From Propionibacterium ruminifibrarum (GTDB taxonomy: Bacteria; Actinomycetota; Actinomycetes; Propionibacteriales; Propionibacteriaceae), in NCBI RefSeq assembly GCF_900289195.1, contig NZ_OMOH01000005.1:30001-62000 (forward strand): a DNA stretch of 32,000 bases, given 5' to 3'. Below are positions 4,721-14,040 of this stretch, one piece after another (position 1 is the first letter of the stretch; every line of letters starts with the position of its first letter). The notes under the pieces are model-generated. The model saw only the letters and a program-made list of their open reading frames with translations, was not told the DNA's origin and did not search any database. The translations under genes and the position numbers were made by a program.

Positions 4721-5551
4721 ATGGCCACGAAGCAGTCCCAGCCCCCACGTGGCCAAAAGGATGGCCCCGGCGCGGCGACCGCGTCCGCGGCCTCGTCCGG
4801 GGCTTACGTGCCCAAGGCTACCACCCCGGGTGACGCTTGGACCAGTCCGGTGGTTCCGTCCGATGCCTCGGATGGATCGTCCTCGGCTCCAGTTCCGGTC
4901 GGCATGCTGTTCCGACTGTTGAGCACAGAACGTATGGCCACCTATGCTGCCGAGTGCGCAGAGGACATGGAGCAGGCTCTGCGCCTTTACGCGTGGAACA
5001 CCGCGGTCTCCGCAGCCCTATGGGGAAGCTTCAACATTCTTGAGGTCACGCTGCGGAACGCTGTCGATCGTCAGCTGGCTGAACTTGCAGGGCGCACGGA
5101 CTGGTGGCGCGGGGAGAACCTGCTGCGCGATCAGGAAAGCCGTATTGCTCAGGATGCGGTGAGGGCGGCGAAGCGAACACACTCCGACCTCGAGATCCAG
5201 CCCGGGCACACCGTGGCAGAACTGACTCTTGGCTTCTGGGTCGGACTGCTCGCCAACAGGTATCACCAGCGGCTGTGGGTGCCCGCTCTTCATCGAGCCT
5301 TCCCCTACTGGCACGAAACGCGTAGGGAGCTGCATCGCAGGCTCGAGTCGCTGCGCAAGCTTCGTAACCGAGTTGCCCACCACGAACCGATCTTTGCCCG
5401 AAAACTAGTGGTAGACCATGACCAGTTGCTCGAAATTCTCGAAGGAATCGCCCCAGAGGCGGCAGCATGGGTTCGGCAGAACTCTCGCGTCCCGGACGTG
5501 CTCAGCCGACGCGCCCAGATTATTGCAGGCGCTGACAGTACCACCTTCTAG
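4721..5551 (+). CDS. Abi_2 / AbiD-AbiF-like abortive-infection protein (HEPN fold)
   Basis: LRKLRNRVAHHEPIF (RNxxAH HEPN motif, nt 5363-5380) plus N-terminal LRLYAWNTAVSAALWGSFNILEVTLRNAV are typical of the Abi_2 family. ATG 4721 lies 3 nt after the methylase stop and has a GAGGA Shine-Dalgarno about 10 nt upstream. The recognisable domain only begins near the alternative ATG at 4904 (MLFRLLSTER), so the start is ambiguous. Confidence 0.7.
   Translation: MATKQSQPPRGQKDGPGAATASAASSGAYVPKATTPGDAWTSPVVPSDASDGSSSAPVPVGMLFRLLSTERMATYAAECAEDMEQALRLYAWNTAVSAALWGSFNILEVTLRNAVDRQLAELAGRTDWWRGENLLRDQESRIAQDAVRAAKRTHSDLEIQPGHTVAELTLGFWVGLLANRYHQRLWVPALHRAFPYWHETRRELHRRLESLRKLRNRVAHHEPIFARKLVVDHDQLLEILEGIAPEAAAWVRQNSRVPDVLSRRAQIIAGADSTTF
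4761..4820 (+). repeat. Junction repeat copy A (hairpin-forming, GC-rich)
   Basis: atGgccccggcgcggcgaccgcGTCCgcggcctcgtccggggctTacgtG... aligns without gaps to 6691-6750 at about 50 of 60 positions. The outer 7-bp stem is gccccgg/ccggggc, and an inner stem flanks the variable centre. Confidence 0.8.
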
Positions 5552-5581
5552 AGGACAACGATGGCGATGAACAACCGAGAT
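5542..5581 (+). repeat. Direct repeat copy 1 (Abi stop, RBS and codons 1-7 MAMNNRD)
   Basis: cacCttctagAGgacaacgatggcgatgaacaaccgagat matches 7452-7491 at 37 of 40 positions. Weaker similarity extends about 12 nt further upstream. Confidence 0.9.
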
Positions 5582-6676
5582 AAAGCGCGGCGTGATGGTG
5601 CAGCAAGCCGCCATTCTGCCCCAGGTCTGACGCCGTTCCCGGCCTTCGCGGAATCGGTCAGTGCTGGTGACGGTGAACTCGTGGAGCAGGTGTCGGCTCT
5701 GATCGACCAGGCTCAAGCGTTCGCTGCGGCGCAGGCGAACGCGACCTTGACCCTGCGGAACTGGTACATCGGGCGCTTGATTGACGTAGCCGTGCTGCGC
5801 GAGGGCCGCGCAGGGCACGATCAAGAACTTGTTGCGTCACTGGCGCAACAATTGACCTCAAGGTACGGGCGCGGCTATGACCGGACAAACCTGTACCGGA
5901 TGGTGCGATTCTCCCAACAGTTCACCGATCCAGAACGTGTTGCGTCGCTGGCGCAACATGTCAGTTGGACTCACTTCCGCGAGCTGCTCCCACTCGGCTC
6001 CGATGAGGCGCGCATCTTCTACGTGCAGGAGACTATCGATCGCCGACTCAGCGTCCGGGAGCTGCGCCACGCCATCTCCCGCAAGGCTTTCGAGCGCCGC
6101 GAGATCGCCGACTCACAGATTCCCGAAGGGTCAGGAACGCCACTGGACGCGTTCCGCGACCCGATGCTGCTCGACATGCTCGGTCTCGCGGACACGTTCC
6201 TGGAGCGCGACCTCGAAGCCGCCCTGCGTCATGACATGGAGGCGTTCCTGCTGGAAGCCGGCCGCGGGTGGGCGTTCGTTGAACGGCAGAAGCGCATGAC
6301 CTTCGACGGCGATGACTACTTCCTCGACCTGCTGTTCTACTCAAGGCCACTGCATCGGTTGATTGCGGTTGAGCTGAAGGTCGGAAAATTCAAGCCCAGT
6401 TATCAAGGGCAGATGAACTTCTATCTGAAGTGGCTCGACAGGTACGAACGGCAGGCTGACGAGAACCCGCCCATTGGCCTGATCCTGTGCACCGAGGCGA
6501 GCCGGGACCAGATCGAGTTGCTTGAGTTGCACAAGGACGGGATTGTCGTCGCCGAGTACTGGACGACGCTGCCGCCCAAGGCCGAGCTCCAGGCCCGGAT
6601 CGCCCAGATCTACCGGGAGGCCCAGGAGCGGATCGCCCGGCGGCAGCTCACGGCGCCGGAGGCCAGCGATGAGTAA
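5561..6676 (+). CDS. DUF1016 / YhcG-like PD-(D/E)xK nuclease domain protein
   Basis: N-terminal helical region ANATLTLRNWYIGRLI. C-terminal nuclease core YFLDLLFYSRPLHRLIAVELKVGKFKPSYQGQMNFYLKWLD (D...ExK). The first 7 codons (MAMNNRD) and the RBS are a copy of the DUF499 gene start. Confidence 0.85.
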   Translation: MAMNNRDKARRDGAASRHSAPGLTPFPAFAESVSAGDGELVEQVSALIDQAQAFAAAQANATLTLRNWYIGRLIDVAVLREGRAGHDQELVASLAQQLTSRYGRGYDRTNLYRMVRFSQQFTDPERVASLAQHVSWTHFRELLPLGSDEARIFYVQETIDRRLSVRELRHAISRKAFERREIADSQIPEGSGTPLDAFRDPMLLDMLGLADTFLERDLEAALRHDMEAFLLEAGRGWAFVERQKRMTFDGDDYFLDLLFYSRPLHRLIAVELKVGKFKPSYQGQMNFYLKWLDRYERQADENPPIGLILCTEASRDQIELLELHKDGIVVAEYWTTLPPKAELQARIAQIYREAQERIARRQLTAPEASDE

Positions 6677-6690
6677 CCCCACATACAACG

Positions 6691-6750
6691 ATTGCCCCGG
6701 CGCGGCGACCGCTGGAGCGGCCTCGTCCGGGGCTCACGTCGACAATGCTA
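6691..6750 (+). repeat. Junction repeat copy B
   Basis: atTgccccggcgcggcgaccgcTGGAgcggcctcgtccggggctCacgtC...; see copy A. It begins 15 nt after the DUF1016 stop. Confidence 0.8.
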
Positions 6751-6767
6751 TAGGGGCCAGCAAACCG
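6749..6767 (+). repeat. Left inverted repeat bracketing the mazEF module
   Basis: The reverse complement of tataggggccagcaaaccg matches cggtttgctggccctata at 7395-7412, with a single 1-nt indel (gggg versus ccc). Confidence 0.8.
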
Positions 6768-6821
6768 CGTCGGGCCGGGTGGGGTGGGGGATCGGTAAAC
6801 CGACAGGGATACACTCAAGGT

Positions 6822-7070
6822 ATGACTTCGTTGACCACTATCAAGGTGTCCACGGGCACCAGGGACCGGCTGCGCGAGGCCTCCCGCGCCGCGGGCATCT
6901 CTCAGGCTGCGCTCATCGAGCAGATGCTCGACGCGCGCGAGGAGGCCGCCTTCTGGGAGGCCCTCGATGCCGCGCCCCCGTACACCGACGAGGAGCGGGA
7001 GGAGTTCCGTCGCGGCGAGGCGGCCTCGTTGGCGGATGCGGCGCGCCTGTTGGAGGATGAGGAGCGGTGA
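6822..7070 (+). CDS. Ribbon-helix-helix type antitoxin, partner of the MazF/PemK toxin
   Basis: 82-aa acidic protein. N-terminal TTIKVSTGTRDRLREASRAAGISQAALIEQML looks like an RHH beta-strand plus two helices. Its stop overlaps the toxin start (GTGA at 7067-7070). An alternative upstream ATG at 6669 has GGAGG 6 nt upstream and would add a 51-aa N-terminal extension, so the start is uncertain. Confidence 0.7.
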   Translation: MTSLTTIKVSTGTRDRLREASRAAGISQAALIEQMLDAREEAAFWEALDAAPPYTDEEREEFRRGEAASLADAARLLEDEER

Positions 7071-7381
7071 CGCCTCTGCCCCATCCGGGCGACGTGGCGT
7101 GGCTTGACATGTCCCCGACCATCGGGCGGGAGCAGCGGGGCCACCGCCCCTATCTCGTGCTCTCCGATGCCCGGCTCCACCGGGCGCGACAGCTGGTGAT
7201 CGGGGTGCCGCTCACGACGCGCAACAGTCCGATCCCCACGCGCGTCGCCGTCGGCGAGGGGTCGTACGCCATCGCGGAACAACCCACGACGTTCTCGATG
7301 GAGAGGATCACCAGGGTGGAGGCCCGCGGCCTCGACACCGCCGAGGTGCGGCGCGTCATCGTTCGGCTGCTCGGGGGATGA
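7067..7381 (+). CDS. mazF: MazF/PemK-family type II toxin (endoribonuclease)
   Basis: 104 aa. PGDVAWLDMSPTIGREQRGHRPYLVLS ... VIGVPLTTR is the typical PemK/MazF N-terminal SH3-like signature. There is a 4-nt overlap with the upstream antitoxin. Confidence 0.85.
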   Translation: MTPLPHPGDVAWLDMSPTIGREQRGHRPYLVLSDARLHRARQLVIGVPLTTRNSPIPTRVAVGEGSYAIAEQPTTFSMERITRVEARGLDTAEVRRVIVRLLGG

Positions 7382-7451: not shown

Positions 7452-7491
7452 CACGTTCTAGGAGACAACGATGGCGATGAACAACCGAGAT
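7452..7491 (+). repeat. Direct repeat copy 2 (RBS and codons 1-7 of the DUF499 ATPase gene)
   Basis: cacGttctagGAgacaacgatggcgatgaacaaccgagat; see copy 1. Confidence 0.9.
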
Positions 7492-10400
7492 CGAGTGGGC
7501 AGGGCCTTCGACCTGCTCTCCGAGGGTCTCCACGACCTGGTGGACGAGGTGATGACCAAGACCTACAACTCATCGCAGTGGCCTGACGCGTGGGCCGAGG
7601 AGGATGCCCGGCGTCGGGGTGGCCCCGTGAGGACCATGACCAAGCAGGACGTCCAAGTGCAGCTTCGCGCCATCACCGAACGCGGCTACGAGTTCAAGGA
7701 CGTGCTGTCCCGGGCTCAGCAGAGCTTCGCCTCCGAACTGCGCGAGACCCGCAACAAGTGGGCGCACAACGAGCCGTTCAGCTCCGACGACACCGTCCGC
7801 GCCCTCGACACCATCGAACGGCTCCTCGAAGCAGCGGGATCCACCGACTCGGCCGCCGACGTGCGCAAACTGCGCACCGACCTGCAACGCACCGTCTACG
7901 AGGAACAGACCCGCAAGCAGGCCAAGAAGGCCACCACGGTGTCCCTCGAACCTGGGGCCGGGCTGAAACCCTGGCGCGAGGTGATAAGGCCCCACGACGA
8001 CGTGGCCAGGGGCGAGTTCACCGCCTCCGAGTTCGCCGCCGACCTGCACTTGGTGCACACCGGACAGGCCACCAGCCCGGAGTACGGCGACCCGGTGGAG
8101 TTCTTCTCCCGCACCTACCTCACCGAGGGCCTGCGCGATCTGCTGTCCCGGGCCCTGCGCCGCCTGGATGGCGACGGCAACGCCAGCCCGGTGGTGAACC
8201 TTCAGACCAACTTCGGCGGCGGCAAGACCCACTCCATGCTCGCCCTCTACCACCTGTTCTCCGGAACCCCGGCGCAGCGCCTCCCGCAGGACGTGCAGGA
8301 ACTCGTCGCCGAGGTCGGCAACCCCGACCTGGCGGCGCTCAACGTCAGGCGGGTCGCCCTGGTCGGCACATACCTGAAGGCGGGATCGCCGCAGGTCAAA
8401 CCGGACGGCACCCAGGTGCACACCCTGTGGGGCGAGCTGGCATGGCAGCTCGGCGGGCGCGAGGCCTATGACATCGTCGCCGACGACGACCGGGCGGGCA
8501 CCAGCCCCGGCGAGGCGCTGCGAAGGCTGATCCAGGCCTACGCCCCGGCGCTCATCCTCATCGACGAGTGGGTGGCCTACGCCCGCCAGTTGGTCACCGA
8601 CCAGGAACTCCCCGCCGGCTCCTTCGACACCCAGTTCACCTTCGCCCAGTCCCTGACCGAGGTGGTGCGGTCGGTCCCGGGGGCCATGCTCGTGGTCTCC
8701 ATCCCCGCCTCCGACAGCGGCGACCGGGGAAGCGACATCGAGATCGGCGGGGCCAACGGGCAGCTCGCCCTCGACCGCCTCCAGAACGTCATCCGCAGGG
8801 TGGCCGACCAGTGGAGGCCCTCCAGCCGGGACGAGTCCTTCGAGATCGTCCGCCGACGCCTGTTCCAGGCCCCGGACGCCGCAGGACTCACCTACATCTC
8901 GGCAGTGGCCCGCACCTTCGCCACCATGTACCGGAACAACTCGGCGCTGTTCCCCCGGGACGCGGCGACACCGAACGACGACTACGAGAAACGCATCCGC
9001 GCCTCGTACCCCCTGCACCCCGAACTGCTGGACCGGCTGTACGAGGACTGGTCCGCGTTGGAACGGTTCCAGCGCACCCGCGGGGTGCTGAAACTGGTGT
9101 CGTCCATCGTCCATGAGCTGTGGGCCTCGAACGACACGTCCCCGCTGATCCTGCCCGGCAATGTGCCGCTGGACGCCACGACGGTGAACACCGATCTGAC
9201 CCAGTACCTGGAGGACCAGTGGAAGCCGATCATCGACTCCGACATCGACGGCGCCAGCTCGACGGCCCAGCGGATCGACCTGGACCGTCCCAGTCTGGGG
9301 CAGCGGTTCGTGACACAGCGCATCGCCCGCACCATCTTCATGGGGGCGGCGCCCCGCAGCCGGAGTGCCCGCAAGGGGCTGGACAAGCAGTACGTGTGGC
9401 TCGGCACCGCCGTGCCCGGCGACGTGCTGGGCAACTTTGGTAGCGCCATCGAGCAGCTGGCCCAGCGCTCCACGTACTTCTACGAGGAGCAGGGCCACTA
9501 CTGGTTCGACACCCAACCGTCCGTCACCAAGACCGCCAGCGACTACGCCGAGAGGCTGCGCGAGGACGTCGAGACGGTGTGGAACGAGATCACCAGGCGG
9601 CTCCGCGGCGAGGAACGCAGCCGCGCCGAGTTCGACCGGGTGCACGTGGCCCCCGAATCCAGCGCCGACATCCCCGACCTGGAGGACACGCGGCTGGTGA
9701 TCGCGCACCCCAGGCACAGCGTCCGCAGGCAGGATGGACCCGACTCGGAGGCCTTCCAGTGGGTGCACGAGGCGGTCGAGACGAAGGGGGCCGGGCAGCG
9801 CATCCACCGCAACACGCTGATCTTCCTGCTGGCCGATTCGGGCCAGCTGGAGAGCCTGGAGTCCGCGACGCGCACCTACCTGGGCTGGAAGCAGGTGCAG
9901 GCGACCAGTGAGACCTTGAACCTCACGGCCCAGCAGCACAAACAGGCCGACGAGTGGGTGAGTCGTCTGGACCAGACCGTCACCGACCGGATCCGCGACA
10001 CCTTCGTGTGGGCGCTGTACCCCGAGCAATTCGACCCGACCAAACCCTTCGACGTGGTGTCGAGCAGGATCCTCGACTCCGGCACACGCTCCCTCGCCGA
10101 ACGGGTGAGCACGAAACTCGTACGCGAGGAACAGCTGATCACCCAGCTGGGCGCGGCCAGCCTGGGGGACGCGCTGCACCGGGAACTGGGGGCGCTGTGG
10201 CAGGACAGGGGCGAGATCACGGCCGAGGAACTGTGGGGCTACTTCACCCGGTACACCTACATGCCGAGGCTGGCCAGCCGGGACGTGCTCGACAACGCCA
10301 TCAAGCAGTCACTGACCGCCGTGCTTGTCGAGAACGAACGCTTCGCGATCGCCACCGGCAAGGACGAGGAAACGGGCCGCTACCGCGGCCTGCTCATCCC

Positions 10401-10872
10401 GCCCGACCCCAACGCCACGCTTCAGGTCACCGACGGCACGCTGCTCGTCGCAATCGAGCGCGCCCAGCAGCAGGTCGATGCGGAACAGGCCGATGCCGCC
10501 CAACCCGCCGGAACCAGTGTGGCAACGGATGCCGGTCAGACGGCTGCGGGTGGTTCAGCCGACTACGTGTGGGCCAGCGGCATACCCGCGGCAACGGGGA
10601 GCGAACAGTCCGGTGCTGAATCGGAACTGGAGGCCGTGCTCGGTCGTTTCTTCGGGTCGGTCAGGATCAACTCCGACCGCTACAACCGCGACATCGGCAA
10701 CATCACCCGCGAGGTCATCGACCGGCTGGCCGGCTCCGGTGCCCAGCTGGAAATCACCATCGACATTCAGGCCATCAAGAAGGAAGGATTCACCGAGTCC
10801 GAGGTGCGTACCATCAGCGAGAATGCGCGGGTGCTGAAGTTTGACCCCGATTCGGGCTTCGAGCAGGACTGA
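7471..10872 (+). CDS. DUF499-family P-loop ATPase with N-terminal Swt1-like HEPN domain
   Basis: 1133 aa. HEPN motif ETRNKWAHNEPF (nt 7750-7767). Walker A is NFGGGKTHSML and Walker B is ALILIDEWVAY. C-terminal FFGSVRINSDRYNRDIGNITREVIDRL...ENARVLKF is typical of DUF499-type ATPases. Confidence 0.85.
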   Translation: MAMNNRDRVGRAFDLLSEGLHDLVDEVMTKTYNSSQWPDAWAEEDARRRGGPVRTMTKQDVQVQLRAITERGYEFKDVLSRAQQSFASELRETRNKWAHNEPFSSDDTVRALDTIERLLEAAGSTDSAADVRKLRTDLQRTVYEEQTRKQAKKATTVSLEPGAGLKPWREVIRPHDDVARGEFTASEFAADLHLVHTGQATSPEYGDPVEFFSRTYLTEGLRDLLSRALRRLDGDGNASPVVNLQTNFGGGKTHSMLALYHLFSGTPAQRLPQDVQELVAEVGNPDLAALNVRRVALVGTYLKAGSPQVKPDGTQVHTLWGELAWQLGGREAYDIVADDDRAGTSPGEALRRLIQAYAPALILIDEWVAYARQLVTDQELPAGSFDTQFTFAQSLTEVVRSVPGAMLVVSIPASDSGDRGSDIEIGGANGQLALDRLQNVIRRVADQWRPSSRDESFEIVRRRLFQAPDAAGLTYISAVARTFATMYRNNSALFPRDAATPNDDYEKRIRASYPLHPELLDRLYEDWSALERFQRTRGVLKLVSSIVHELWASNDTSPLILPGNVPLDATTVNTDLTQYLEDQWKPIIDSDIDGASSTAQRIDLDRPSLGQRFVTQRIARTIFMGAAPRSRSARKGLDKQYVWLGTAVPGDVLGNFGSAIEQLAQRSTYFYEEQGHYWFDTQPSVTKTASDYAERLREDVETVWNEITRRLRGEERSRAEFDRVHVAPESSADIPDLEDTRLVIAHPRHSVRRQDGPDSEAFQWVHEAVETKGAGQRIHRNTLIFLLADSGQLESLESATRTYLGWKQVQATSETLNLTAQQHKQADEWVSRLDQTVTDRIRDTFVWALYPEQFDPTKPFDVVSSRILDSGTRSLAERVSTKLVREEQLITQLGAASLGDALHRELGALWQDRGEITAEELWGYFTRYTYMPRLASRDVLDNAIKQSLTAVLVENERFAIATGKDEETGRYRGLLIPPDPNATLQVTDGTLLVAIERAQQQVDAEQADAAQPAGTSVATDAGQTAAGGSADYVWASGIPAATGSEQSGAESELEAVLGRFFGSVRINSDRYNRDIGNITREVIDRLAGSGAQLEITIDIQAIKKEGFTESEVRTISENARVLKFDPDSGFEQD

Positions 10873-10914
10873 ACTAAATTAAGGCTGAAATCAGAGATGC
10901 TGCTGACAGGGAGT

Positions 10915-10932
10915 AAAACCATTTTTGGTTTT
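10915..10932 (+). terminator. Weak AU-rich hairpin plus T-rich tail after the DUF499 gene
   Basis: aaaacca-tttt-tggtttt followed by gtgtattgtttc, 43 nt after the stop codon. The stem has only 2 G:C pairs. Confidence 0.35.
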
Positions 10933-11735
10933 GTGTATTGTTTCTGATGTGCAGGCTGGGGTCACATTCGAAGAAGTTTTCACCCTTGCCGCGTGGAAGG
11001 AATGGTTGCCATCTATGTGTTAGCTCGGATGGGGACCGAAGCGATCTGTTATGCTTCAAGGGACCGGTGATTAGGATCTTGCGTAGTGGGAAGGCTACAC
11101 GGGGATGGTTTGCAGACTGATAGGGCACCAGGATGTGCTTGACCCCGATTCGTTACGTGAGGAACCCAGCCGTTGTGAAACTCTCCTGTGCTCAGAAAGA
11201 AAAGGAAGAAGAGTTTCGACTAGTCATCAAAACTAGTGTTCATGATGGATTCGGGCTTGACGTCTTGAAAATCCTGAATGTGTTACTACGTTTTGATCCA
11301 CTGGCATCGTAAATCCGGTTAGCTGTACATTTTCTTGACGCATTTCAAAGTGACATTTTACCAATCCGATGCTTAGTGTCCTGGGTTTTCGATTCTCTGG
11401 CATGTCTAACTTCATACAGATAAATGCCGCTACTTCTGCTAAACTGGTCTGTATATCAGTCACACATCTCAATCGATTTTCCATAAGAGCGAACTCTATC
11501 ATAGAGTGATAAAGCGCCTCCGGGGTGCATGTCAGATCAAGGGCGCGTTATGTGTGAAAAGACTGGGTTGTAGTAAGCTCAGTCTGAGTGTGTGAGGACA
11601 ACTAAAGCAGGACATGGCGGGTGGGAACTATCGGTGCTGAATCCAAGGCCTGAGCGGTTGTGAACTCAACAAGACAGTTTGAATACTGCTTGCGGGAAAA
11701 GGGATTGGGCTTCACTGGAAACGCATAAAGTGAAA

Positions 11736-11778
11736 GAATAGACGCTATCATGATAGCGGAGTACTTCGGCGTCTATTC
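11736..11778. repeat. Nested palindrome in the non-coding part of the AT-rich island
   Basis: The 10-bp arms gaatagacgc (11736-11745) and gcgtctattc (11769-11778) enclose a perfect 14-bp palindrome gctatcatgatagc (11744-11757). The palindrome shares 2 nt with the left arm, so the two pairings compete. Confidence 0.7.
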
Positions 11779-11854
11779 GCGGAGTGATACAAGTAAAGTT
11801 GCTAAAATCTGTTCTATGGTGCTCCTCCGATGTTGCCCTCGCCAAGACTGATCG

Positions 11855-13111
11855 ATGTTTTCTGCTATCGTTCCGAGTATGAAAGGTCATCCACGCATGC
11901 CTCCTTACGGATCTGCACGGGATCTCCCATCAGTCAAGGAGATAGAACAGCAAATAGCAGCATTCAAGAAGGTGATGTTCTTTTCGCGTGATAAACGGAG
12001 GCGGCTAGAGCAGTTAGAAAACAAGCATCGACATATAATAGAAACCGTTGACACTTTCTATGACTTGCTCGGGGCGCGCAACTGGGTTTTCACTGATGAT
12101 CTCAACTTAGATGAGATTCAAAAAGTCGTGGCTGGCTCTGATTCGCAGGTGGCGGAAAAGCGTCTTATTGAGTATTACCAGAAAACTGGACGAATCTCAT
12201 CTCTACTTCGTCAGCTCAGCCGATTTGACGAGATGCAGAAGCGTCTTCCCCTGCTACAGAAGGCGCTGGCTGATTATGAAGCGGGTCGCTACTACAGCAC
12301 CGTTCTTGTCATACTTTCAATGATGGATGGTTCCGTCAATGACCAGGACACGGCACAACGCAGAGGACTGCATGCACGTTCGCCCGAAGATATGATGGCC
12401 TGGGATAGCGTCGTCGGGCATCATCTTGGGCTGGGGCATGCTCACAAATCCTTCGTTAAAGCGTATTTCAAGACAGATGAAACCGAAATTACTGAGCTGG
12501 CTCGTAATGGAATCATGCACGGCACTTTGGTGAACTATGACAACGTAGTAGTCGCAACAAAAGCTTGGAATCGTCTTTTTGCAGTTGCTGACTGGGCTGA
12601 TGCGCGGAAGCGACAAAAACGACCTGTTGAACCAGCGCCCTCGTATAGAGAATTAATGACACGTTGGTGTAAAATCCAGTCTAACAAGACTAAGATTGAA
12701 CAGTGGCAGCCGTATGAGTATGATCCAAACTTACCGCATGAAGATCCCGCTGAAGTTGCCATGGTGTGCGCAGACTTTCTTGAGCGATGGAGTAAGCGCC
12801 AATGGGCGCCGATGGGTGAGTACTTTATAAAACTCGTGAACCCCCAGCGGCCCCCCGGCCAACTTGCGCGAGAAGCCAGGGATCTTTACGAGCAGTTCAA
12901 TCTTGACGAATGGAAGATCCTTAGAGTGCGACACGAGGCCGCTGCCGTCGCGTATACTGATGTGCAGCTCATAGTGAATTCCAGGATTTACCTGGCTGAT
13001 CTACGTTGGATTCATGTTGACGGTAATGAGAAAACTGCCATGGAATGGGAACCTGGACGTTGGGTGCTGTCACCGTATGGGCCAAATAAATTCCTCAGTA
13101 TCGACGATTAA
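11855..13111 (+). CDS. Hypothetical protein (418 aa) with a HEPN-like Rx4H motif; orphan gene of the AT-rich island
   Basis: This is the only long ORF in the island, and its low-GC codon usage is consistent with the island. The pattern LQKALADYEAGRYYSTVLVILSMMDG ... ELARNGIMHG (R217-x4-H222, nt 12503-12520) resembles a HEPN four-helix bundle. The N-terminus is predicted coiled-coil-like, and the C-terminal ~150 aa is an unrecognised globular region. The start is uncertain (ATGs at 11855, 11879, 11897). Confidence 0.6.
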   Translation: MFSAIVPSMKGHPRMPPYGSARDLPSVKEIEQQIAAFKKVMFFSRDKRRRLEQLENKHRHIIETVDTFYDLLGARNWVFTDDLNLDEIQKVVAGSDSQVAEKRLIEYYQKTGRISSLLRQLSRFDEMQKRLPLLQKALADYEAGRYYSTVLVILSMMDGSVNDQDTAQRRGLHARSPEDMMAWDSVVGHHLGLGHAHKSFVKAYFKTDETEITELARNGIMHGTLVNYDNVVVATKAWNRLFAVADWADARKRQKRPVEPAPSYRELMTRWCKIQSNKTKIEQWQPYEYDPNLPHEDPAEVAMVCADFLERWSKRQWAPMGEYFIKLVNPQRPPGQLAREARDLYEQFNLDEWKILRVRHEAAAVAYTDVQLIVNSRIYLADLRWIHVDGNEKTAMEWEPGRWVLSPYGPNKFLSIDD

Positions 13112-13476
13112 AGTTATTCATGGTGCCCGCGGATGAGGTATAGTATCGCGACACTTCGAGTGAAGGCTTCTGCTGATAAGGTTGCTAGTGTCGCGAGTCG
13201 TTAGTTTTGATGGTTTGGGGTCAGGGAAGATCTCGCCGTGAGGAATTCTCTGGTTCCTGTTTTAGTGTTAAATGGTTATGGTTGGGGTTGCTGTAGTTAT
13301 GGGCGGGCTGTCATTGACTTGCACTGGGCCTGCGATGAGGGATTGGGGCCGTGCTGCTCGCGATTGGACGGGTTCAGATGCGGGTCTCATGCGCTCCATT
13401 CATCAGCGTGTCGGAGCGTGACGTCGTACTCGTTGTCGGAAGGCCGCCCCCGACATATACATGTTAGATTGTATGT

Positions 13477-14040
13477 ATGAGACGGACGGCTGAGGCTGCG
13501 GAGCAGACGCGGCGCGCGCTGCTGGAGGCGGCGCTGTTGACCTTCGAGGAGAGGGGCTGACGCGGGGCGACCTTCGAGGTCGTCGCCGCTCGCGCAGGTG
13601 TCACCCGCGGCGCGTTGCACCATCACTTCAGTTCCAAGGCCGTGCTGCTCGAGGACGCGCTCGCATGGGGCTGGGCCGAGTACGGGGCACGGCTCTTCGA
13701 TGTCGAACCCGCGGACCTGGCGGCACTGCTGCCCGAGTTCGTGCACCTCCTGCGCGAGGACGCCAGGTTCCGCGCCCTGGCGGCCTGCACGGTGCTCGTC
13801 GCGCCGCAGGCCCTCGGCGACACCGCCGGGAAGAACGCCGCACTCGATGCCTGGCGCGACCGTATCGCCGCCGGCCTCCCCGCCACTTCCGAATCCACCC
13901 CAGAAACGGTCGCAGCCCTGGCGCTGGTGCTCGTGCAGGGGCTCACCGTGACAGCCGTGATGCGCCCCGACGATCTTCCCCGGCCCGACGAGCTGAGCGC
14001 CACGATCTCGGCGCTGGCAAGGGGGTTGCGCCCGACATAG
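13477..14040 (+). pseudogene. TetR-family transcriptional regulator interrupted by an in-frame TGA at 13558-13560
   Basis: ATG 13477 gives MRRTAEAAEQTRRALLEAALLTFEERG, then TGA. The same frame continues RGATFEVVAARAGVTRGALHHHFSSK (TetR HTH) into the tracked ORF 13615-14040. The stop falls just before the HTH. Confidence 0.75.

Follow-up and report, generated by a model that had tools for sequence, protein, structure and literature searches.

Which function can be assigned to a gene of foreign base composition that starts ∼1 kb 3′ of a defence operon and whose product resembles no catalogued family? The question is raised by a stretch of 32,000 nt from Propionibacterium ruminifibrarum (the window), in which an open reading frame (ORF) at 11855..13111 (+) was originally predicted to encode an orphan 418-aa protein with a HEPN-like motif and a role in defence or counter-defence. 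The ORF is present, and its likely start lies at 11879 (M9) because most aligned homologues begin there and the database copy (P0001) has 410 aa; the upstream in-frame ATG at 11855 is the start used in the original prediction, and a minority of homologues carry longer N-terminal extensions. With this start the coding sequence covers 11879..13111 (+), that is, 410 aa plus the stop codon, and we use the 410-aa numbering, which equals the earlier numbering minus 8 (R217/H222 become R209/H214). The analysis presented here assigns the protein to a large bacterial family that is missing from the catalogues and new in its architecture, and that belongs to a known class, single-gene effectors with a HEPN-type motif encoded in defence islands. 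The gene is a good candidate, though an unproven one, for an immune effector of a new single-gene kind.

Database searches showed that the protein is no orphan. A word-indexed search returned 683 homologues at E ≤ 1e-3, the closest of them only 61–64% identical, and an exhaustive search against 50%-identity representatives returned 824 clusters, 182 at E ≤ 1e-30. All source-named matches were labelled hypothetical or uncharacterised, save one homologue with a weak ‘DUF2397’ UniRef label, which did not recur among the families that the Pfam scans listed and which we discarded as noise. The earlier statement that the protein belongs to no recognised family held, since none of Pfam (2025), NCBIfam (2026), PADLOC 2.0 and PHROGs contained a covering model. 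Weak single-protein matches to Occludin_ELL and Csm2 in these scans were considered noise; the Csm2 match (E 0.025, no passing stretch) was the only one in PADLOC-DB v2.0.0. Likewise, sequence searches of the PDB with full-length and central-domain profiles gave only noise, such as histone H2B and a NifU-like protein. The family ranges over Actinomycetota, Chloroflexota and, more distantly, low-GC (guanine plus cytosine) bacteria. A pattern-limited scan of species-representative genomes located 57 loci, distributed over many genera of actinobacteria (Streptomyces, Kitasatospora, Rhodococcus, Nocardia, Corynebacterium, Leucobacter, Arthrobacter, Brevibacterium and Schaalia, among others) and in metagenome-assembled genomes of Chloroflexota. 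Distant relatives with 23–29% identity, found on contigs of 30–55% GC, retained the full architecture and the motif PYRNGIxHG. Family proteins longer than the norm included one with an N-terminal HTH_3 extension (P0177, which may result from a merged gene call) and were otherwise uninformative.

The residues that the original prediction had singled out, an arginine and a histidine within ELARNGIMHG, are indeed there, and R209-N-G-I-M-H214 is the only Rx4-6H of the protein. Because 0.96 Rx4H motifs are expected by chance per sequence of such composition, the signal resides in the invariance of the motif across the family and not in its presence in one sequence. Conservation of R and H among homologues had been set beforehand as a test of the idea, and both turned out to be essentially invariant. 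The HEPN-type motif, RNGIMHG at 12503..12523 (+), conforms to R[NH]G[IL]xHG in 251 family sequences, in which the residue following R (R+1) is only N or H; three long sequences miss this pattern, two of them reading RHA[LI]xHG and the third being disrupted. R, H and G of the motif were invariant in a central-domain alignment of 46 sequences (A4), as were R, G, I and H of ELxR[N/H]GIxHG in an alignment of 35 sequences. When 114 sequences were aligned, down to 25% identity, ELARNGIMHG was the top-conserved 10-mer of the family, followed by ATKAWNRLFA and LSMMDGSVND. The start of the long helix after the motif, ATKAW (12554..12568, +), contains the invariant K228 together with W230, which is invariant in A4 and at least 90% conserved in alignment A3, and the MMDGSVND segment (12320..12343, +), located where the second helix of a hairpin ends, contains D150 and G151, both invariant in A4. 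Residues conserved in at least 90% of the 114 sequences were D58, F60, W69, E93, R122, A129, D150, G151, V153, N154, G184, L185, N222, A226, K228, W230, L233, A235, D238, W239, W304 and W395. Information content per column was highest in the central domain (2.47 bits, as against 1.4–1.7 bits elsewhere) and lowest in the C-terminal domain (1.36 bits).

We modelled the protein with AlphaFold2 (AF2) from the 114 sequences, obtaining a predicted local distance difference test score (pLDDT) of 95.9 and a predicted template-modelling score of 0.88; this model superseded an earlier run with 35 sequences in which the motif region had a pLDDT below 50. The high-confidence model shows a three-part predicted architecture. 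The N-terminal helical region (aa 1–115; 11879..12223, +) is predicted to form helices 17–31, 37–67, 77–83, 89–100 and 105–113, and includes the four conserved residues D58, F60, W69 and E93, a conserved peptide PYGSARDLPS and the segment VDxFYxLLGxRNW. The original prediction had described this end of the protein as coiled coil; its helical nature stands, with one helix of 31 residues, but a coiled coil was not borne out. The central, catalytic-looking domain (aa 116–250; 12224..12628, +) is all-α in the AF2 secondary structure and is the most conserved part. It is composed, in order, of an α-hairpin (123–134 and 138–156), an insert, a helix at 185–192, 16 non-helical residues, a 5-residue helix at 209–213 and a long helix at 223–247. 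The long amphipathic helix previously postulated here is helical as claimed, but corresponds in the model to the α-hairpin of two helices, 131–142 and 146–164 in the 418-aa numbering. A linker with a long helix (aa 256–275; 12629..12718, +) leads to the C-terminal α+β domain (aa 281–410; 12719..13108, +), the least conserved part of the protein.

This C-terminal domain, which had been foreseen as a separate α+β domain, has ∼130 aa and spans 279–405 in the AF2 model, where DSSP assigned helices 292–305, 309–313 and 326–337 and strands 342–354, 357–366, 369–380 and 394–397. A Foldseek comparison of the full-length model with the PDB gave 334 matches at E ≤ 10, of which the best 50 (E ≤ 0.19) were used. 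These 50 matches were NTF2-like or curved-β-sheet proteins, with probabilities mostly of 0.9–1.0 and E values of 0.02–0.2, and limonene epoxide hydrolase, ketosteroid isomerase and the PBP5/PBP2a N-domain were among the matches listed. In addition, the Pfam family MecA_N matched weakly in 4 of the 114 members (best E 1.3e-4). On this structural evidence the C-terminal domain is predicted to have an NTF2-like fold. None of the best 50 of the 334 PDB matches covered the 275 helical residues. The only structural analogue found beyond the NTF2-like matches was BFVD entry A0A8S5NQ77, an uncharacterised 217-aa protein of Siphoviridae sp. ctpbe1 (E 2.3e-3, target-normalised template-modelling score (TM-score) 0.56, 214 aligned columns, 14% identity), which, judged by its length, presumably matches the helical part.

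To analyse the genomic behaviour of the family, we took the 57 genome loci, a further locus (L001) and the window, and clustered every ORF of 70 aa or more that lay up to 8 kb on either side of the gene. No conserved partner gene was found, no neighbour cluster occurring in more than 5 of the 57 loci, and the largest shared cluster (5 loci) included the IS3-type rve transposase of L001. The 148 nearest neighbours fell into 134 different Pfam families. A type II toxin-antitoxin partner was sought as a conserved adjacent gene among ORFs of at least 70 aa and none appeared; upstream and downstream neighbours were mutually unrelated between loci. The original prediction had made proximity of homologues to defence genes a second test, and in raw tallies homologues lay repeatedly beside defence genes and mobile elements. 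Examples are a type II cyclic oligonucleotide-based antiphage signalling system (TIR-SAVED, SMODS, E1/JAB) carried in L069 by an element that also has a TrwC relaxase and serine recombinases, a TIR-DUF1883 protein and HigB, an M78 peptidase with DUF4411, and a 1187-aa SIR2 protein, DUF6119 and an Abi_2-like gene near the copy on pVAPN, the virulence plasmid of Prescottella equi. Recurrent neighbour families, as raw counts without background correction, were GajA/OLD and SIR2_2 (three times each), AAA_21 (four times), and Mrr_cat and ResIII (twice each).

Mobility was apparent from several observations. The GC content of the gene was below that of its flanks in 52 of 54 loci, and the family is present on five actinobacterial plasmids. 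In linear plasmids of Rhodococcus and Streptomyces, and in pVAPN, the gene is within a few kb of the record start, and one copy on a Streptomyces plasmid lies downstream of a polymorphic-toxin HINT protein. At three related actinobacterial loci, a gene encoded on the same strand ends 72–84 bp upstream of the family gene; in L005 (6306–9929) its product is a TrwC relaxase-helicase of 1207 aa, with which the products in L016 (1203 aa) and L006 (a 325-aa ORF) cluster, and this suggests that the family gene is cargo of a conjugative element. Many chromosomal copies had no mobile-element gene within two genes. Carriage by phages was searched for with three different family members as queries, giving 0 matches in 50,697 GenBank phage genomes. 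Four viral-labelled contigs from IMG/VR (L086, L087, L088 and L089) encode distant relatives with 23–29% identity that keep the motif, and PHROG matches in L086, L088 and L089 included a Mu-like transposase, a transposition protein, portal, terminase and head proteins and an endolysin; these contigs suggest occasional carriage as prophage cargo. Judging from ORF length and order, the gene is apparently a few kb from the transposition module in L086, L088 and L089. The IMG/VR copies also have a lower GC content than their surroundings, as at other loci.

Taking these results together, we tentatively favour, at somewhat less than an even chance, the explanation that the product of the gene is a conflict protein (anti-phage or anti-plasmid) that acts on its own and spreads horizontally, a HEPN-type RNase equipped with an NTF2-like sensor. 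The mobile conflict gene is supported by the lack of a fixed partner, the foreign composition and the recurrence beside defence genes or on mobile elements; the RNase is supported because R209 and H214 are essentially invariant and an N or H at R+1 matches the HEPN rule (PMC3710099). From the anatomy, conservation and genomic behaviour described above we infer a HEPN fold, RNase chemistry, a sensor role of the NTF2-like domain and an anti-phage phenotype. In such a protein the R-[N/H]-x3-H site of the central all-α domain would most likely cleave RNA in a metal-independent manner through R209 and H214, with the possible assistance of D150, N154, N222 and K228. The variable NTF2-like domain would most likely hold the enzyme off until a phage-derived protein or small ligand binds, and the N-terminal helical region, or its conserved peptide, might share in restraint and sensing. 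Activation would then lead to RNA cleavage and, with it, to abortive infection or an arrest of growth. The low conservation of the C-terminal domain is what one would expect of a sensor under diversifying pressure.

How well does the central domain agree with the HEPN superfamily? In the definition given by Anantharaman et al. 2013 (PMC3710099), the HEPN fold is a four-helix up-down bundle of two α-hairpins in which Rx4-6H occurs at helix 3's end and runs into the loop to helix 4, the residue after R is mostly N, D or H, and helix 2 often has an acidic residue close to the motif, typically within Ex3[KR] (PMC3710099). In the present family we found an Rx4-6H with a polar R+1 (R209-N-G-I-M-H214, with N or H at R+1 in 251 sequences), and the order of elements in the AF2 model, namely α-hairpin, insert, short helix, motif, loop and long helix, is compatible with HEPN. 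D150, invariant in A4 as part of MDG, ends the helix 138–156 and is not in an Ex3[KR] context. Central-domain profiles were also compared by hhalign with two closely related HEPN families only, using profiles built for the Abi_2 and Swt1 domains of the window itself. One detail that speaks for HEPN is the top local alignment with the Swt1 HEPN, which paired both R and H with their counterparts and kept the following helix in register, at a probability of 0.2% that is not significant. The control, Abi_2 against Swt1, gave E 9e-5 and 59% probability, and the profile links of the defining study had HHpred probabilities of 75–98% (PMC3710099).

A number of results count against this explanation. 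The hhalign comparisons of the central-domain profile were not significant either with Abi_2 (E 0.22–0.35, probability 0.2–0.3%) or with the Swt1 HEPN (E 0.13–0.32, probability 0.2–0.5%). No HEPN Pfam model was listed for the 114 members even at E ≤ 10, single-sequence Pfam and PADLOC scans gave no HEPN match, and no HEPN protein figured among the best 50 of the 334 Foldseek PDB matches of the full-length model. The modelled motif is in a 5-residue helix preceded by 16 non-helical residues instead of terminating a long helix 3, and four additional invariant polar residues (N154, N222, K228 and D238) are outside the HEPN signature. As for the genomic arguments, the proximity to defence genes consists of raw tallies without a background-corrected enrichment statistic, and some copies, such as that of L084, are lone insertions among housekeeping genes. 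Overall, we judge membership of the central domain in the HEPN superfamily possible, at slightly below an even chance.

The same evidence bears on other explanations. The protein might be a conflict effector whose all-α domain has a new fold unrelated to HEPN, with R209, H214, D150, N154, N222, K228 and D238 serving another chemistry, for example attack on DNA, nucleotides or NAD, or protein modification. That HEPN was reached neither by HMM (hidden Markov model) or profile comparison nor among the best 50 of the 334 PDB matches, that the invariant polar residues far exceed the HEPN dyad, that the motif is in a loop-rich segment and that about one Rx4H per protein occurs by chance all speak for a new fold, as does the position of the helical part outside those 50 matches, with the uncharacterised 217-aa phage protein as its sole structural analogue. 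On the other hand, R-[N/H]-x3-H-G with its strict R+1 and the ensuing helix is the classic HEPN signature, the one-dimensional order of elements fits HEPN, and HEPN families are often mutually undetectable by sequence. We consider a new fold doubtful, though far from negligible. Were it correct, the helical core (aa ∼1–275) would be an unrecognised catalytic fold defining a new, widespread single-gene conflict system with at least 824 clusters at 50% identity, which is again a rather unlikely outcome. Such a system would extend from Streptomyces to gut bacteria with a GC content of 30% and to Mu-like prophages. In it, the NTF2-like pocket would sense a small molecule or peptide and thereby switch on an R/H/K/D site with a chemistry unlike that of known HEPN RNases, a possibility that is similarly doubtful.

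A different proposal, which we regard as improbable, is that the gene serves maintenance, addiction or establishment of conjugative elements, linear plasmids and transposable prophages, its proximity to defence genes reflecting shared variable regions. The spacing of 72–84 bp from the relaxase of L005 and from the same-cluster genes of L006 and L016 is what such a gene would show, together with the TrwC and serine-recombinase element of L069, the position near the record start of the Rhodococcus and Streptomyces linear plasmids and of pVAPN, the rve transposase in the largest shared-neighbour cluster and the distant relatives on Mu-like prophage contigs. It is countered by the lack of a conserved antitoxin-like partner and by the many chromosomal copies without a mobile-element gene within two genes; defence genes also ride on such elements, and the two explanations overlap. 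Much less credible still is counter-defence, the option left open by the original prediction, in which a protein encoded by a phage or plasmid would inhibit an immune system of the host. Although distant relatives occur on the four IMG/VR contigs that have genes for a Mu-like transposase and for portal, terminase and head proteins, the best structural analogue comes from a siphovirus and the window copy adjoins Hma, the absence of matches to three queries in the GenBank phage genomes makes counter-defence unlikely; moreover, at least 57 species genomes carry the gene chromosomally in varied contexts, with no consistent pairing with any one defence system. Equally remote is an immunity protein or binding adaptor centred on the NTF2-like domain, for instance against a polymorphic toxin, with a non-enzymatic helical part: the domain itself and the copy downstream of the HINT protein would suit it, but this toxin neighbour was seen only once, and conservation peaks in the helical domain, with its invariant polar residues, and not in the NTF2-like domain. 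The HEPN-type conflict effector remains the explanation that we prefer.

Regarding the window itself, the gene has 49.3% GC compared with 68.5% for the rest, and it lies in a ∼2.6-kb stretch at ∼49% GC inside a genome of ∼68–70% GC, in line with the foreign composition proposed originally. This low-GC island (10873..13470, end approximate, no strand assigned; ∼39–58% GC per 100 bp) extends from the hmaC stop codon to a TetR-family gene. The ∼1-kb low-GC spacer 5′ of the gene (10873–11878) is of unexplained content, without a conserved ORF, Rfam match, tRNA or tandem repeats, without similarity to the upstream regions of homologues at other loci, and with an unremarkable fold z-score of −1.5. 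Promoter and terminator scans gave background level only. An exact 14-nt direct repeat, TTGACCCCGATTCG, is found at 10841–10854 (3′ end of hmaC) and at 11139–11152 (in the spacer), 298 bp apart, and could be a trace of island insertion or a product of chance. On the 3′ flank there is a TetR-family gene followed by MFS transporters. The TetR-family gene (13477–14040, +), at the border of the low-GC island, has an in-frame TGA at 13558–13560 (…LLTFEERG*RGATFEVVAARAGVTRGALHHHF…) where W (TGG) would fit, and is either a pseudogene or affected by a sequencing error. A near-identical contig from a sibling strain (L091) stops short of the gene.

Upstream, the placement downstream of a defence operon was confirmed: a Hma system ends ∼1 kb before the gene. 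According to PADLOC-DB it consists of HmaA, a helicase truncated at the window edge, HmaB, a DUF1156 methylase, and HmaC, a DUF499 ATPase, and the operon includes Abi_2, YhcG and PemK guest genes. The guest genes are located between hmaB and hmaC at 4721–7381 (+), and encode an Abi_2/PD-T4-5-like HEPN protein (4721–5551, +), a YhcG/DUF1016 PD-(D/E)xK nuclease (PDC-S02; 5561–6676, +), a RHH antitoxin-like ORF (6669–7070, +) and a PemK-type toxin (7067–7381, +), the latter call being transferred from L091, the nearly identical contig. At its N terminus HmaC carries a Swt1-type HEPN domain (RNKWAHNEP; 7471–7860, +) fused to the DUF499 ATPase and, since Abi_2 is another, the island already holds two bona fide HEPN domains.

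If the family is a true anti-phage effector, it represents a compact single-gene system common in Actinomycetota, whose hosts include industrial Streptomyces, Rhodococcus and Corynebacterium as well as the Prescottella equi virulence plasmid pVAPN, and an NTF2-like domain with a HEPN-type motif would be a new sensor-effector pairing. Because Pfam, NCBIfam, PADLOC and PHROGs lack models for it, current defence-annotation tools are blind to the family. Because the R/H dyad is invariant, two point mutants would put the hypothesis to a direct test.

With respect to known systems, Hma is the immediate upstream neighbour of the gene in the window, but the ∼1-kb low-GC spacer and a 20-point drop in GC set the gene apart from hmaC. 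Moreover, no Hma-type shared cluster was present among the neighbours at the 57 loci, and DUF499 and DUF1156 were not among the 25 most frequent families of the 148 nearest neighbours of homologues; the gene is a Hma neighbour and not a Hma component. The C-terminal domain resembles NTF2-like proteins in its helices followed by a curved antiparallel sheet, with target-normalised TM-scores of 0.42–0.53 in single-domain matches, whereas identity is only 8–16% and E values only 0.02–0.2, and here the domain is the appendage of a larger cytoplasmic protein. Our literature search on defence proteins combining HEPN and NTF2 found nothing relevant. Finally, we compared the protein with the known single-gene HEPN Abi effectors (Abi_2/AbiD-AbiF, PD-T4-5, ApeA and AbiJ/Abi_C-type). 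It differs from them in having no significant HMM or profile match, including to the two HEPN proteins encoded 1–7 kb upstream, in the location of the motif in a short helix that a long non-helical segment precedes, in the extra invariant residues (MDG..N, N222, K228 and D238) and in the NTF2-like fusion, which is not in the 2013 survey (‘NTF2’ occurs 0 times in PMC3710099). What it has in common with them is that its gene stands alone in defence islands and on mobile elements, that an invariant R-[N/H]-x3-H, with an α-hairpin and insert upstream, leads into a loop and then a long helix, and that an effector domain is fused to extra, presumably regulatory domains.

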